Shown here one piece after another: positions 6,356 to 60,386 of a DNA stretch of 64,000 nt. The DNA is from Pristiophorus japonicus (Eukaryota). Position numbers and translations under genes: made by a program. Under the pieces are notes generated by a model, which ran no database searches, was not told the DNA's origin, and was given only the letters and a program-made list of their open reading frames with translations. The stretch covers positions 130,448,001-130,512,000 of the forward strand of contig NC_091980.1 in NCBI RefSeq assembly GCF_044704955.1. The letters run 5' to 3'. Every line of letters begins with the position of its first letter. Within the stretch, counting starts at the first letter, position 1.

Positions 6356-8937
6356 ATGGCTTCCCAAGTGTGTCAGAACTACCACAAGGAATGTGAGGCT
6401 GCTGTCAACAAGCAGATCAACATGGAGCTCTGTTCCTCCTATGTTTATCTCTCCATGGTGAGTTGTGTATTCCTTGTTCCTGCAATCTGAAAAGTTGTTA
6501 ATTCTCCAGTTCAATGAACTGGCTTTAAGTTGTTTTTCTCTGGACTTCCTTCCCTGGGGGAGCAGAGTCTTTGGGCAGTGAGGACTTCAGGTGTGTAATA
6601 CAGGGGGAACTTGTTGAGTTCATGGACTGCTCCCTGTAGCAGCTGCCCTCTGTTGAAGTTTAATATCTGAAACCAGCCTAGCTGCTGCCTGAGTGTGTGA
6701 CAGAAGAGCACAAACCTGGTCAGGGGCCTGTTGTTCAGTTTCAGTGGGGGGACTGCAGTGAGTGAAATGTGGGCAGGTCCTCACTAGTGTTCTTATTGGA
6801 GGTGAAGTACTGAGAATCCTGATGTTGGAGCCTTGCTCACTGTGCTGAGATCTCTCTATTACACTATTGCTGTGTAAACTATTGGAGTGGAGGATTTTTC
6901 TCATTCCATGCTCAAACTTGGTCTAGAATGGAAGAATAATAATTTCTATAATGCCTTTCACTACCTTGGCGACAAAGCACTTTGGGAGATTCCAATGAAG
7001 GAGTTAAGTGTAGTTCTCTGTTATGTGGGAAATGCAGCAGCCAATTAGTGCACAGGATGCTCCCACAAACTGCAATGAGATAATGATCAGATCATCTGTT
7101 TTACTGGTGTTGGTTGAGGGGTAAATATTGGCCAGGACACTGCAGAGAGCTCTCTGCAGTAGTACCGAGCACATAGAGTAGGCTTGAGGGGCCAATGGCT
7201 TATTCCTGTCATTCAATAAGATCATTGTTGATCTTGTATCTCAACTCCACCTCTGCACTGTCCCCATATACCTTGGTATCCAAAAATCTATCATGTGCTC
7301 TCTCTCTCTTGAATATACTCAATGACTGAACCTCTGTATCTCCTGGGGTAGAGAATGTCAAAGTGTCCCACCCTGAGTGAAGAAATTCCTCTTCATTCTG
7401 TCGTCAATGACTGACCCCTGGTTCTAGACTCTCCAGCAAGGGGAACCATCCTCCCTGCATCTAATCCTTCAAGCCCTGTAAGAATTTTGTACGTTTCTAA
7501 TGAGATCTCCTCATCCTTCTAAACTCTAGAATAGAGGCTCAGTCTGCTCAATCTCTCCTCATTAATCTTTCACATCCACCTGATGACTGACACACTCTTG
7601 TGTGAATGACAGAAAGTAGAGGAGATATTGCTTATCCAGGAGAAGAATTTAGTTTGACTGGACATGAAATATAATCCTGAACTTTAGGTTTATAGGTTCA
7701 GCCAGCAAAGAAAAATTTCCATCGTGCTTTCGGGAGTGAGGCTCAACTCCGATTGATGAAGTCAATGGCATTTTGCTAGTTTGCAAATGGTGTCTATTTT
7801 TAAGGATTAAGAATTCACTAACTAGGGGAAAAATAACTGTTGCATTGTATAGGAAGATCAAGTTCAAAAGAAACTGTTTTAAATTCTCTCCGCAGTCCTT
7901 CTACTTTGATCGGGATGATGTTGCCCTGCGTCACTTTGCTGAGTTCTTCAAGGAGCAGTCACATGAGGAACGTGAGCATGCTGAGAAACTGATGCAATTC
8001 CAGAATCACCGTGGAGGACGGATCATCTTGTCTGACATCAGGTTTGGTTCAATAAACTAGTGGCTTTTGGTCTGGATACCCTGAGACCTGCTTGTTTCAA
8101 ATAACTCCTAAAGCAATTGGTTCCATGGTTGTGGTAGTGGAATGCAGTAATTCTATATTCCTATGACACATTGTTTATGGTAACTTGGCATCTGGTTGCT
8201 TTTTCACCCCTATTTTCCTTGTACTGTCTTGTGTATTTTGTTTGTTCCATTGTAAGTGAACTGCCTGTGACTTTCCTCTTCAGAAACCAGAGCAGGATGA
8301 GTGGAGCAATGGTCTGGAGGTGATGCAAAGAGCTCTGCAGATGGAGAAGAATGTGAACCAGAGTCTGCTGCATCTGCACAAACTCTCCACTGGGAGCACT
8401 GACCCTCATGTAAGTTCCTCATGAGGGTTTCTGGGTAACTTGGAGGTGCTGGAACATTGCTGTCCTTCAGTTGTTTCAAAAGATCGCCGTGAACAATAAC
8501 TTTATTTTGGGGAGGGTCTCTCCTGGGTTCTTCAGGGTGTGGGAAGAGGACCGGGAAGTTGGCCTACTGTGGACATTGAGAAATAAATGGGTCCCAATGT
8601 TTCCAGGATCTAAGCTCACATTGTACAGGAGTTACTGGATCATTAGAGCAAATGTACATCAATTTCAATTGCCCTACCTGATCCTTCTCCACTCCTAGAG
8701 AATTAAAATCTTAACTCGAGGGGATGCTCTGATGTTCCTTGATATCTGCTACTGGCCATAACTCGTTTCCCTCTTTCAGTTGTGTGACTTCCTGGAGACC
8801 CACTACTTGGATGAACAAGTGAAGATGATCAAGAAGCTTGGAGATCCCATCACCAACCTGAAGAGACTGGGAGCTCCTGAGAATGGCATGGGAGTGTACC
8901 TTTTTGACAAGCACACTCTCTGGGGGAGAGTGACTAA
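6356..8937 (+). pseudogene. Ferritin heavy/middle-chain-like paralog A1, frameshifted
   Basis: Exons 6356-6457, 7896-8041, 8284-8409, 8780-8937 with GT-AG sites. Exon 2 is 146 nt (GACATCAG|GT vs GACATCAAG|GT in all other copies). Exon 4 has a 2-nt insertion (ACTCTCTGG) and an H>P change (GDPITN). AATAAA at 9056-9061. Confidence 0.85.
6940..7160 (-). mobile_element. Deu-domain SINE (SacSINE1-like) fragment in intron 1 of type A genes
   Basis: gcagccaattagtgcacagg...cccacaaactgcaatgagataatgatcagatcatctg...gttgaggg.taaatattggccaggacac recalls the DeuSINE core in reverse. Copies at about 22775-22967 and 50600-50810. Confidence 0.6.
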
Positions 8938-10709
8938 ACTGACTGATGGGATCAAGCTTAATGTGTTTAGTACTTGTATTTATATAATCAGGCCCCTGTC
9001 ATGTAGGGAATGAAGGCTTGTGACTTTGTACAAAGAGCTGAAACCCATAACTGTAAATAAACTGTTCAACATTGGGCTGTGTTTTGTCACCTTGTAAGTT
9101 TGAGTGGTTACTTATTTTTCATTTAACATAACTTGGTTTCCATCGAACAAGAATTACACTGAGTTTATATGGGATTCAGTCCTTTGAAATGTGTTTTCCT
9201 CTCGTGTAATGTCTATGTATTGACTGGGACATTCAGCCACCTGTTATAAGTTCTAAAATGTTCAACGGTGTGGTCAGACAACTGACAGCCCCATGGGATA
9301 CTGGCCCAGTAACCAAAAGTCTGGTCAGAGGTATGTATTAAGGACGTACAGAGAGGCATCTCTCGAGCTTGGGACGGAGAAACTGTATACAATTACCTGT
9401 TACAACTATCTGTCTTTGTACAAATGACAATTCAATCCAACAAGATGTAACATCTGTTAAACACAGGGCCAATTTGCCAGTAATTCATTGTTGCACCATT
9501 TCAGTCCAGTGAAGAAAAAGTCCTGAATTAGCTTCCTATTTAGTGTATGTGCCTCGTGAACAGCAGTTTATATTCAATAGCCGCAACAGATCCTCTTCAG
9601 TTATACAGGTAGTTCAGTAATGGGACTCACCACTGCTGCTATAGGCTTGCTGTTAAGCTTTGTAGGCAGACAAGCAATGTCTCAGCACACTGAACTCTGG
9701 GCACTACAATTGGATGAGGAGGGAAAGCAACAGGTGGCATCAGCTTGCTGTCACAGCTTCAGTGGTTAGTGTGGATACTCGAGTCTGGTGGTTCTGGGAC
9801 AGCTTCTCTTCTGCCTGCTCCCCTCATGGTTGAATAACTTGTCAGCACAACCTCCATTCACATGAATAAGGAATTGGGTAAAGTATTGAAAGACTAACGA
9901 TACTCCAACAAAATGTAATGCTTGGGGAAGGAGCAAATGTATTTAATTCCACAAAGCAAAAGGTACAAGATATTAAACCCATTTCTACCCTGGCCACAAT
10001 GCATAAGCACTCAATTTATAAGCCTACTATCAATTATTTTTTTAGTACCATTGTGAATTTCATTACTATCACCCTGGGTTAGATCTCCATTTCTCTCCTT
10101 CGTGGCAGTGAATGGATACAAATGGTATTGCTGCAGCTCCAATAATCCAGTGTTTACAAGTTATTTTTAGGAATTTAGCTGAGAACTGTGTTGAGTGCAA
10201 TTAAATTGCCATGTACAGACATTCCACGTTGATGTCTTGGCAATACTCAAGCGCCTTTGGGATATCGATGTTACAAAATTTCAAATATTGATGAGCCACA
10301 GTTCCACGAGTCGGCCTGGGTTTGCGTGCTGAAGGGTTTGATGGCTTCATGTATCAACAAAGTCTCCAGCTCACTCGATGTGAAACTTTACAGGTGCTCG
10401 TGTTTTAAGAATTACTTACAATTTACAGCACAGAAAAAGACCATTCGGGCCAACTGGGCTATGCTGTGGTTTTTGCTCCATGTGAGTCTTCTCCCACCCC
10501 ACTTCATCTAGACCTATTAGCATATCCTTCTATTCCTTTCTCCCTTGTGTTTATCTAGCTTTCCCTTAAATGCATCTATGCTCTTTGCATTCAGAGTTAT
10601 TACTGCGTGTAGCTCAGTAAACGCACCGCTGCTGCTGTGGATTTTCTGTTAAGCTGTGTGGGTAAAGAAGTGAGTGACAGCTATCGAGCCCAGCAATGTT
10701 TGAGCTCAA

Positions 10710-11594
10710 GGACAGCATTTATTGTCCATCCCTAATTGCCTCTGAGAAGATGCTGGTCAGCCATATTCTTGAACCGCTGCAGTCTTGTGGTGAAGGTACT
10801 CCCACAGTGCTTTTAGGGAGGGAGTTCCTGGATTTTGATGCAGTGACGAAAAAGGAATGGTGATATATTTCCAAGTCAGATTGGTGGTAACGTGGAGGTG
10901 AACTTGCAGGTGATAGTGTTCCCAAACTTCTGCTGCCCTTGTCCTTCTAATTGCTAGAGCTCGTGGGATGGCTTGTGCTGCTGAAAAAGCCTTGGCGAGT
11001 TGCTGCAGTGCATCTTGTCGATGGTATACACTGCAGCCATGGTGCACCGGTGGTGGAAGCAGTGAATGTGGAAGGTGGTGGATGGGGTGCCAATCAACCG
11101 GGCTGCTTTGTCCTGGATGGTGTCGAGCTTCTTGATGATTGCTGAAGCTGCACTCAGCCAGTCAAGTGGAGAGTATTCCACCACACTCCTGCCTTGTGCC
11201 TTGTCGATGCTGGAAAGACTTTCGGGTGTCAGGAGGTGAGACACTCACTGCAAAATACCCAGCCTCTGGCCCGCTCTTATTACCAGAGTAGTTATGCGGC
11301 TGGGCGAGTTCAGTTCCTGATCAGCGATGACCCCCAGGGGTTAATGCTGGGGAATTCAGCGGCAGTGAATGTTAAGGGTGGGTGGTTAGACTCTCGCTTT
11401 TTGCAGATAGTCATTGCCTGGCACTTGTGTGGTGCCATTGTTACTTGCCCATTATCAGCCCCACACTGAATGTCATCCAGGTCTTGCTGCATGTGGGCAT
11501 GGACTGCTTCATTTTCTGATGTCTTGCAAATGGAACAGAACACTTTGTAATCATTAGCAAACATTCCCACTTCTGGCCTTTATGATGGAGGGAA
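10710..11594 (-). mobile_element. Decayed CR1-clade LINE (second family), truncated by a deletion
   Basis: RT motif remnant MFA(N/D)D and C-terminal EYSPLDWLSAA...KLDTIQDKAARLI. Longer copies at 30130-32330 and 54350-56560. Confidence 0.75.
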
Positions 11595-60039: not shown

Positions 60040-60209
60040 TGTCAGCCAATGATGCTCATTCTTCAAAGATCTGACTGGCTCTGGGAGTCCATCTCCCTCC
60101 TTCCTTTACTTGATTGGTGCTCTGAGAAGATGCAACTTCTGATTGGGTATTGATGACTGTCACTCATCATCAAGAATGCCACACCCTGGATTATCCCTCA
60201 GTATAAATA
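60040..60209 (+). promoter_or_regulatory. Ferritin B3 core promoter
   Basis: CCAAT/ATTGG boxes and TATAAATA at 60202-60209. Confidence 0.65.
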
Positions 60210-60284
60210 TAGGTGTTTGAGCTTGACAAAATGTTACCTTTGCACTTCTACAAAGTTTTTACTTTGGAAAAATAAAATATTAAG

Positions 60285-60386
60285 ATGGCTTCTCAAGTGC
60301 GTCAGAATTACCACCAGGACTGTGAGGATGCTGTCAACAAGCAGATCGACATGGAGCTTTCTTTCTCCTATGTTTATCTCTCTATG
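60285..60386 (+). CDS. Ferritin paralog B3 exon 1 (remaining exons, if present, lie beyond the window)
   Basis: [34 protein letters not shown] then GTGAG. Confidence 0.85.

Follow-up and report, generated by a model that had tools for sequence, protein, structure and literature searches.

Results

Six alternating ferritin loci in the window

A 64,000-nt stretch of Pristiophorus japonicus DNA (hereafter the window) carries six ferritin loci, which were named A1, B1, A2, B2, A3 and B3 and lie, exactly where the initial annotation had placed them, on the plus strand in the order A-B-A-B-A-B (Table 1). The claim that only A2 and B2 are intact was likewise borne out, with lesions found in A1, B1, A3 and B3. 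The genes of the tandem array to which they belong encode a ferritin domain of ~176 aa in four exons, as vertebrate cytosolic ferritin does, with PF00210 matches of 131 bits for P0015 (an A model) and 136 bits for P0011 (a B model), and four gene models are identical to P. japonicus proteins. A1 has lost 1 nt at the end of exon 2 and carries a 2-nt insertion in exon 4, both lesions being common to two other copies. Exon 2 of the B1 remnant is 100% identical to that of B2, and the DNA around it is ~89% identical. A2 has a TATA box 76 nt upstream and an AATAAA at 28476, and B2 has a weak IRE relic in its leader (36080-36103) and a polyadenylation-type AATAAA at 45038. Intron 2 of the B genes measures 4.5-5.3 kb in 19/31 copies and ~0.6 kb in 12/31. 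The 3′ UTR opening the window, ascribed earlier to a seventh gene, is present, but its owner is of a third type, C, and hence neither A nor B.

Table 1. Features of the window and their positions
Feature	Position	Strand	Details
3′ UTR of a type-C ferritin pseudogene	1..200	+	exon 4 stops 43 nt upstream of the window
Unit 1 (A1 and B1 remnant)	4681..20457	+	15.8 kb; two deletions, junctions near 11594 and 18233
Type-A promoter and short leader of A1	6150..6355	+	inverted CCAAT boxes, degenerate TATA, no IRE
A1 pseudogene	6356..8937	+	exons 6356-6457, 7896-8041, 8284-8409, 8780-8937
B1 remnant	12889..13035	+	exon 2 alone, flanked by deletions on both sides
Degenerate LTR retroelement, intron 2 of the B1 unit	13553..18215	-	LTRs 91% identical; integrase and RNase H domains
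Unit 2 (A2 and B2)	20466..48290	+	27.8 kb
A2, intact 176-aa ferritin	22179..28358	+	exons 22179-22280, 26005-26151, 26387-26512, 28203-28358
LINE insertion, A2 intron 1	22955..25156	+	open reverse-transcriptase frame, 733 codons
Type-B promoter and leader of B2	35900..36123	+	inverted CCAAT boxes, TATAAA at 36041
B2, intact 176-aa ferritin	36124..44922	+	exons 36124-36225, 39007-39153, 44332-44457, 44767-44922
LTR retroelement of B2 intron 2, same as in unit 1	39671..44217	-	
Unit 3 (A3 and B3)	48291..64000	+	runs past the window; A-to-A distance 30.4 kb
A3 pseudogene	50002..52589	+	premature stop at codon 55, exon 2
B3 exon 1	60285..60386	+	exons 2-4 outside the window, stop at codon 79

The window is part of a 5.63-Mb array

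The window makes up ~1% of an array on contig C4 that spans 5.63 Mb, with the outermost ferritin loci at 127.780 and 133.406 Mb and no further ones found within 100 kb beyond either end. Roughly 350 ferritin loci are present, five estimates spanning about 285-400: exon-2 candidates numbered 344 and 365 at first look, promoter-pattern matches 65 (A) and 219 (B class), and extrapolation by density gave 397. In the 1.544 of 5.63 Mb that were read, N was absent; 59/114 sampled loci were intact and 55/114 broken, in agreement with the birth and death proposed earlier. The A promoters are concentrated at 128.98-131.21 Mb, and ~3.4 Mb of the array is almost without an A gene. An A-type promoter was also found at the left-edge gene of the array and in a ferritin cluster on C19, where the copy aligned with the A-type promoter over ~200 nt with a score of 310 (127 against B2) and where array-type relics adjoin an M-like gene.

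Alternation and duplication history

Among 65 loci in an 804-kb block, 0/64 neighbours were of the same type, whereas 20,000 shuffles gave 25 on average and never fewer than 8; the neighbour pairs were AB 27, BA 22, CA 7, BC 6 and AC 2, and type C was intact in 1/13. This alternation throughout the block supports the proposed co-duplication of an A/B pair. The alternation probably arose as a side effect, each duplicated unit carrying one A and one B so that both were copied together. This unit itself probably goes back to a trio, A-B-C, in which C died. The intactness of A-B neighbours was independent (11/6/6/4, P=1.0), and correlated survival was sought and not seen.

A triplication of a 28-kb unit, as had been suggested for the window, was rejected because the nearest relative of each complete gene lies outside it (A1 99.5%, A2 99.0%, B2 99.4%, A3 97.8% and B3 97.2% identity), the best identities inside being 88-95% for the five multi-exon genes and the A-to-A spacings 15.8, 27.8 and 30.4 kb. 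The nearest relative of the B1 remnant also lies outside, by a narrow margin. Duplicated blocks are 13-32 kb long and offset by 40-496 kb, with 99.0% identity in one 22.5-kb duplicate, and some matches recur elsewhere at fixed offsets with equal scores. Five lesion patterns are each common to 2-3 copies, dead copies having been re-duplicated. Haplotype mis-joins, a concern raised with the initial annotation, are ruled out in the window since its units diverge by 5-11% (89-95% identity); the 99% duplicates elsewhere may be of that kind.

Differences between types A and B

The two types form separate groups by their flanks and by 19 diagnostic coding sites, as separate clades had been predicted to do. 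The residues assigned to A (C29, M165, V167) and to B2 (Y29, L165, E167) proved right, but residue 29 varies within B (Y11, H3, N2, S2 and C1 in 19 intact B copies). The promoters, described as different, have diverged in sequence yet are homologous rather than unrelated, inverted CCAAT boxes being present in both and a TATA box preceding the ATG by 76 or 83 nt. The promoter, leader and 3′ UTR remain characteristic of each type across ~60 copies, and the array contains several intron-defined subfamilies. The A2 and B2 proteins share 166/176 residues (94%). Near-fixed differences between A and B comprise eight replacement and 11 silent changes, against 99:69 within types (P=0.22), and no positive selection between A and B was seen in this replacement:silent comparison.

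Ferroxidase centre, selection and probable exon conversion

Residues were numbered through a PDB alignment of an FTH1 retrocopy, and the H-type ferroxidase ligands are E27, Y34, E61/E62, H65, E107 and Q141. E27, Y34, E62, H65, E107 and Q141 are invariant in 55/55 intact full-length copies (P=0.007 vs random sites), E61 is D in one outer copy, and ligands are altered in 6/19 broken copies, three by a stop. The three-fold channel residues H118, C130 and D131 are kept in both A and B. Judged from sequence, A and B thus appear to keep an H-type ferroxidase centre. The L-type is marked by K62 and a disabled ferroxidase centre; E62 was present in every intact A, B and outer copy and K62 in neither type, and a K62 L-like array type was not found in P. 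japonicus among 150 scored of 365 candidates (best 79% identity).

Codon statistics were calculated for copies with four standard-length exons (55 intact and 19 broken, of 116). The pN/pS was ~0.3 (0.30-0.31 within types, P<1e-4 each; 0.23-0.32 among intact copies), and selection on the array is purifying in all three groups. Within types, pS was close to the divergence of the flanks (A, 0.058 vs 0.050; B, 0.066 vs 0.063), whereas between types it was 0.152 vs 0.353, an estimate of conversion that is rough because between-type flank distances approach the aligner's floor (shuffled control 0.45). Mosaic exons are present in the array, and the exons have likely been homogenised across types by gene conversion.

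Iron control

Rfam IRE_I was found only in L008 and L012, the single-copy FTH1 (C14) and the M-like gene (C19). Rfam detected no IRE in five array loci, and none in the window whether the gathering score was applied or E values of up to 10 were admitted. An IRE-like hairpin occurs in 1/110 upstream regions, that of a broken C copy, and the weak IRE relic in 6/29 B copies and 0/31 A copies.

NCOA4 binding uses R22 (R23 counting Met), and the cleft includes A19 and Y30, positions 18 and 29 here (PMC11076521); no mention of an R23K mutation was found in that paper's main text. In 59 intact copies residue 22 was K in 58 and Q in one, the R22 of FTH1 being found in none, and the array genes carry M144. 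Positions 18 and 29 differ between A and B, so that 2/8 differences fall in the 11 contact sites (P=0.08). These residues suggest that the NCOA4-binding cleft is altered in the array (K22), with two A/B differences within it. By eye, the P. japonicus NCOA4 exon showed no human ferritin-binding pattern downstream of the segment aligning to PDB 9L93.

Phylogeny and comparison with known systems

A quick tree was built from 92 rows (75/120 listed homologues, 14/59 intact array copies and three single-copy genes). The FTH1 group (11 rows, SH-aLRT 99) leaves out the array clade (58 rows, 95), which shares an 81-row group (99) with amphibian/turtle heavy chain A/B and the shark M-like gene. The array clade is present in sharks, rays and chimaera, its subgroups being mostly lineage-wise (SH-aLRT 80-97). 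Three ray proteins fell inside the sawshark group on long branches, a placement that we do not trust. The pair had been called lineage-specific, which holds for the amplified A-B block but not for the array clade, given its presence in all three groups, or for the A promoter, found on C19.

The C14 FTH1 resembles the array genes in its four exons, complete ferroxidase centre and three-fold channel residues, but differs in tree group, IRE and R22, the array genes having no IRE and carrying K22 and M144. The M-like gene lies on the same side of the tree and in a tandem cluster, but has retained both the IRE and R22 and shows no amplification in the C19 segments read. Mammalian H/L ferritin also has two related chain types with potential co-assembly, H and L being described as dividing oxidation from nucleation (PMC11719527), whereas A and B share 94% identity and are each H-like. 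A K62 type, not found in P. japonicus among the candidates scored, is amplified in carpet sharks (P0078, P0112, P0096). FTH1b copies are reportedly the subject of a second Greenland shark paper. Histone, rDNA and ubiquitin genes form dosage arrays with concerted evolution and purifying selection; the ferritin array shares with them a multi-gene tandem unit, conserved coding sequence and pseudogenes carried along, but here dead genes account for about half, introns are kept and spacers are transposon-loaded. Frequent pseudogenisation and lineage-wise grouping are as in immune-type birth-and-death families, and diversifying selection was not encountered.

The clusters of the Greenland and great white shark are described in a preprint as megabase tandem arrays of at least 100 copies, mostly full length and common to shark orders (Sahm et al., 10.1101/2024.09.09.611499), and the P. 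japonicus array is likewise of megabase size with at least 100 genes. Its copies lie outside the FTH1 group and are not L-type, whereas the preprint labels them FTH1/FTL; phylogeny, IRE analysis, subtypes, alternation and conversion are not covered in the preprint text, whose supplements may hold more. It was the only work on shark ferritin expansion found, and no title named subtypes, alternation or IRE loss in a search that covered subscription papers thinly.

Expression evidence

All 8/8 dispersed loci tested cross exon junctions, as spliced retrocopies do, among them L001, B-type with 42 nt of B leader, and L096, of type A, which carries the A 3′ UTR plus an A-run. The retrocopies show past germline transcription of A and B, in either sex, and not present-day oocyte expression. 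Ovary-specific expression is reported for the Greenland shark cluster in one paragraph of the preprint (10.1101/2024.09.09.611499), and a ferritin is reported as the predominant transcript of a coho salmon early-oocyte subtracted library (PMC2262088). In five contig sets from runs presumed to be RNA, the main exon-1 and exon-2-end alleles occurred in 0/98 and 0/97 copies counted; the contigs therefore belong to other species, and expression cannot be ranked by their depth. Upstream DNA resembling that of A and that of B is covered by contigs from a single sample of another organism.

Discussion

We consider it reasonably probable that the A-B block belongs to an IRE-less, ferroxidase-intact 5.63-Mb array serving as a gene-dosage source of ferritin for oocytes, with the alternation as a by-product. 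The array clade would have arisen from an M/L ferritin cluster (C19 here) and then expanded, and the A-B-C trio of the central region would have lost C. Through unequal crossing-over, one or several A-B units at a time would have been multiplied, dead genes as well as live, and occasional gene conversion may have kept exons alike across types as introns and promoters drifted. The CCAAT/TATA promoters would drive many copies in the ovary, the short leaders would permit translation regardless of iron, and A and B chains would co-assemble randomly as H-like 24-mers that store or buffer iron for the large yolky egg. With roughly one in two sampled loci dead and a loose constraint at pN/pS 0.3, drift may account for some of the copies. 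The own promoter, leader and eight near-fixed residues of type A (18 intact copies) go beyond what a purely passive model demands.

These type-specific promoters, leaders and 3′ UTRs speak for A and B as selected regulatory classes, similar proteins under two promoter/UTR sets for different cells or stages (for example oocyte vs follicle cell) and perhaps turned over differently via the NCOA4 cleft. The A-type promoter conserved on C19 and at the left edge, the other-organism contigs over both upstream types, the IRE relic confined to B and the position of residues 18 and 29 in the cleft (PMC11076521) agree with this, but the contact-site excess has P=0.08, core promoter motifs are common to both types and the NCOA4 exon lacks the human pattern by eye, so we judge it unlikely. 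An oocyte ferritin of cartilaginous fishes that escaped both IRE and NCOA4 (K22; D18/C29 by type), the A/B mix timing iron release, is a more speculative proposal still. Strict alternation (0/64), equal survival (19/32 A and 19/31 B intact) and eight near-fixed differences, of which 165 and 167 adjoin the E helix, would also suit the initial proposal of complementary subunits of a lineage-specific heteropolymer, kept 1:1 by the layout. Yet the proteins are nearly identical, ligands and channel residues occur in both and K62 in neither, replacements are not in excess, neighbours survive independently, M165-V167 also occurs in Heptranchias array proteins, and with ~65 A against 219 B-class promoters and ~3.4 Mb almost without A the whole array is far from 1:1. 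The pair is probably not a new subunit system, and we regard this reading as distinctly improbable.

Broken and re-duplicated copies, the 99.0% duplicate and the equal-score matches at fixed offsets would also be expected of a largely non-adaptive array, amplified by recombination around few working genes and partly inflated by assembly. Against this stand purifying selection in all three groups with invariant ligands, window units that differ by 5-11%, the absence of N in the sequence read and the recurrence of ferritin expansions across shark orders (protein clusters of 69-180 members), which leave it very unlikely. Least probable is an immune-type diversification of ferritin variants withholding iron from pathogens: birth-and-death turnover and intron-defined subfamilies fit it, but the 'immune-like' turnover claimed earlier is unsupported because a pN/pS of ~0.3 indicates purifying selection, coding exons are homogenised rather than diversified, and the expression reported in the preprint for the Greenland shark is ovarian.

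In mammals iron is stored by the products of two genes that iron itself tightly regulates, whereas this shark appears to rely on a separate ferritin clade with several hundred copies, governed by dosage and not by an IRE switch. Shark ferritin clusters and their ovary expression are already known from the preprint (10.1101/2024.09.09.611499); our results suggest that its FTH1/FTL label is wrong. The alternating block offers a clean natural record of unit amplification, member loss and exon homogenisation, and, if oocyte-directed, the array bears on the iron provisioning of very large shark eggs.

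Gene content of the window

Exon mapping of the window (C4:130,448,001-130,512,000 in a 5.92 Gb genome) identified six ferritin loci, all on the plus strand, with A2 and B2 as the intact ones, in agreement with the initial annotation. Its residue calls for A2 and B2, which are identical at 166 of 176 residues, were also correct (residues are numbered as in human H without its Met, with an FTH1 retrocopy aligned to the PDB as the anchor). The 3′ UTR that it assigned to a seventh gene is present on the plus strand, but belongs to a third ferritin type, C. In B1, two deletions whose junctions have short shared sequence took exon 1 and exons 3-4.

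Ferritin features of the window
Feature	Position (nt)	Strand	State
3′ UTR of type C ferritin	first 200 nt		
A1	6356-8937	+	broken: 1 nt missing at exon 2 end, 2-nt insertion in exon 4
B1	12889-13035	+	exon 2 alone left
A2	22179-28358	+	intact
B2	36124-44922	+	intact
A3	50002-52589	+	stop at codon 55
B3	starts 60285	+	stop at codon 79, past window end

A young LINE insertion with an open reverse-transcriptase frame of 733 codons lies in intron 1 of A2 (window 22955-25156) and is common to A2 and one other A copy. Two open frames of 207 codons (63138-63761, minus strand) and 223 codons (2198-2869, plus strand) gave no Pfam match and are probably remains of retroelements.

Extent and copy number of the array

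Ferritin loci span C4 from 127.780 to 133.406 Mb, and none was found in the flanking 100 kb on the left or right. Copy number was estimated at 397 by density and at 65 + 219 by promoter-pattern matches, while a first genome-wide look at exon 2 returned 344 and 365 candidates. A 1.544 Mb sample of the array, in ten blocks, contained 116 loci; block edges truncate two of these, and of the remaining 114 loci 59 are intact. Four gene models are 100% identical to Pristiophorus japonicus database proteins, so these genes are already in the automatic annotation.

At C4:128.9-129.8 Mb, ferritin matches repeat both in mirror orientation and with a constant offset of ~261 kb, which implies large duplications, inverted as well as direct, and some of these could be assembly duplicates. 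A 455-codon open frame at C4:127,738,001-127,739,365, some 40 kb to the left of the array, contains a CWVC motif and resembles a retroviral envelope gene, and a degenerate 5S rRNA match (61 bits, L143:8396-8527) lies between array genes 1 and 2.

Alternation and origin of the A-B unit

Across an 804-kb central block of 65 loci, not one of the 64 neighbour pairs is of the same type (AB 27, BA 22, CA 7, BC 6, AC 2), compared with a mean of 25 and a minimum of 8 in shuffles. The alternation is real and more extensive than had first been seen. Its proposed origin by a single triplication of a 28-kb unit is rejected, since A1, A2, B2, A3 and B3 each have their nearest relative (97-99.5% identity) outside the window, against 88-95% within it. 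Segments of 13-32 kb are found duplicated at offsets between 40 and 496 kb, and each of five lesion patterns is common to two or three copies, which indicates that dead genes were duplicated as cargo.

A-B-C trios stand at either end of the 804-kb block and at 129.15-129.20 Mb, and only 1 of 13 C copies is intact. An A-B-C trio thus probably lost C, after which the remaining A-B pair would have been amplified. A-type promoters are limited to ~128.98-131.21 Mb, the gene at the array's left edge and one C19 site; the outer array has other intron types and promoters of B class.

Clade identity and the C19 cluster

A quick maximum-likelihood analysis of 92 proteins placed the shark, ray and chimaera array proteins in a single clade (58 rows, SH-aLRT 95). 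This clade is nested in an 81-row group whose other members include heavy chain A/B of amphibians and turtles and the M-like gene of this shark; FTH1 lies apart from this group. The A copies formed a subclade (support 96). FTH1 is located on C14, and a cluster on C19 contains the M-like gene, an L-like gene and a gene with an N-terminal extension, together with broken array-type copies downstream of an A-type promoter. For both Heptranchias and Heterodontus, the longest contig has the same length for array proteins as for such single-copy types. We infer that the array clade arose in the M/L-type cluster, here on C19.

The broken copies with the A-type promoter ahead (L231-L232, C19:93,087,000-93,097,600, ~50 kb from the M-like gene) may mark the array's origin or a jump back from C4. 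The extended gene (L233-L234-L012, C19:93,128,500-93,141,700) has introns and matches the Heptranchias protein P0083, and its Arg/Leu-rich N-terminal extension looks like a mitochondrial targeting peptide; the mammalian mitochondrial ferritin gene is intronless. Exon 1 of a further ferritin gene lies on the minus strand near C19:93,121,500 (L233), and the L-like gene (L011, C19:93,189,300-93,191,800) has K27. Position 144, beside the ferroxidase centre, is M in most elasmobranch array proteins and in 52 of the 54 A, B and outer copies that are intact, where A or S predominates in the other aligned vertebrate chains.

Selection and the relation of A to B

Within intact A, B and outer copies pN/pS was 0.30-0.31 (each P<1e-4), versus 0.48-0.55 among broken copies. 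Within types, silent sites diverge as much as flanks do (A, 0.058 against 0.050; B, 0.066 against 0.063) and are therefore under no special constraint. Between A and B, silent divergence was 0.152 compared with 0.353 in flanks (shuffled control, 0.45), which together with mosaic exons in several copies points to exon-limited gene conversion between types.

That A and B are complementary subunits of their own heteropolymer system, as initially suggested, is quite improbable. The residues E27, Y34, E62, H65, E107 and Q141, which we take to be the ferroxidase ligand set, are invariant in all 55 intact full-length copies (P=0.007, as only 78 of 176 sites are invariant), and neither type has the L-type K62. 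Replacement changes are not in excess: near-fixed A-B nucleotide differences number 8 replacement and 11 silent, compared with 99 and 69 among the distinct within-type variants (P=0.22). Intactness is independent in paired A-B neighbours, and M165-V167 is also the state of Heptranchias array proteins. A real difference between the types is nevertheless favoured by A18, C29, Q71 and M165 in 18/18 intact A copies, by about five cysteines in A versus three, and by the promoter, leader and 3′ UTR that A has of its own. Specialisation of A and B in regulation is the main rival to the dosage-array reading favoured below, and is unlikely to a lesser degree.

Regulation and germline transcription

Rfam IRE_I is present 5′ of FTH1 and of the M-like gene, and Rfam gave no IRE match for the L-like locus L011, for any of five array loci or anywhere in the window. 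By motif scan, an IRE-like hairpin occurs in 1 of 110 upstream regions, that of a broken C copy. A significant IRE relic was detected in leaders of 23/34 outer, 11/13 C, 6/29 B and 0/31 A copies. TATA lies 76 nt (A) or 83 nt (B) upstream of the ATG and is preceded by inverted CCAAT boxes.

All eight dispersed array-like loci tested span exon junctions. Among the dispersed copies, L001 is a B-type retrocopy that retains 42 nt of the B leader; L096 is of A type and carries an A-run as well as the A 3′ UTR. Both are spliced, which indicates past germline transcription and splicing of A and B alike. In other-species runs, whose RNA status is a guess, contigs bridge all three A-gene introns, and in one such sample contigs also cover A-like and B-like upstream DNA.

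The NCOA4 cleft

The NCOA4 cleft comprises, numbered with Met, A19, N22, R23, L27, Y30, R80, F82, K87, D90, V111 and S114, and binding is lost in A19Y and R23A, according to PMC11076521. The R23 position is K in 58 of 59 intact array copies and in most chondrichthyan array proteins examined (Q in two), while FTH1 and M-like chains of this shark keep R; the A/B differences at 18 and 29 fall within the cleft. An altered cleft in array chains is a lead suggested by sequence. Against it, 2 of 8 A-B differences among 11 cleft sites gives P=0.08, lysine retains the aliphatic chain that the same source stresses, and R23L still bound in cells (PMC11076521). Also against it, the human binding pattern was not seen by eye in the NCOA4 exon of this shark past the part aligning to PDB 9L93. 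Ferritinophagy may work differently here. The large NCOA4 exon (L210:1192-2487, C22) has a Trp-containing motif in three near-repeats.

Comparison with other sharks

Carpet sharks have a second amplified ferritin type with K62, E141 and an L-like centre (P0078, P0112, P0096 and P0075 compared), in clusters of 76, 45 and 19 members; contigs of this type and of H-like array genes are equally long, and Heptranchias has a related K62 type. Among sharks, the carpet-shark type is the better candidate for a genuine system of two subunits. It was not found in the P. japonicus genome among the 150 scored of 365 candidates.

In outline, the array is already published: the portion of Sahm et al. (bioRxiv 10.1101/2024.09.09.611499) available to us reports 155 FTL and 179 FTH1 calls in the Greenland shark, in clusters syntenic with white shark and with ovary-specific expression. 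We saw no mention in that portion of clade identity, loss of the IRE, the history of the unit or the change in the cleft, and a partial survey of the literature turned up nothing about shark ferritin subtypes, their alternation or a missing IRE. In coho salmon, the predominant transcript of a subtracted early-oocyte library encodes a ferritin (PMC2262088). On balance, we favour, with some reserve, the reading that the alternation is a trace left by duplicating A and B together as one unit, within an IRE-less dosage array that likely serves oocytes.
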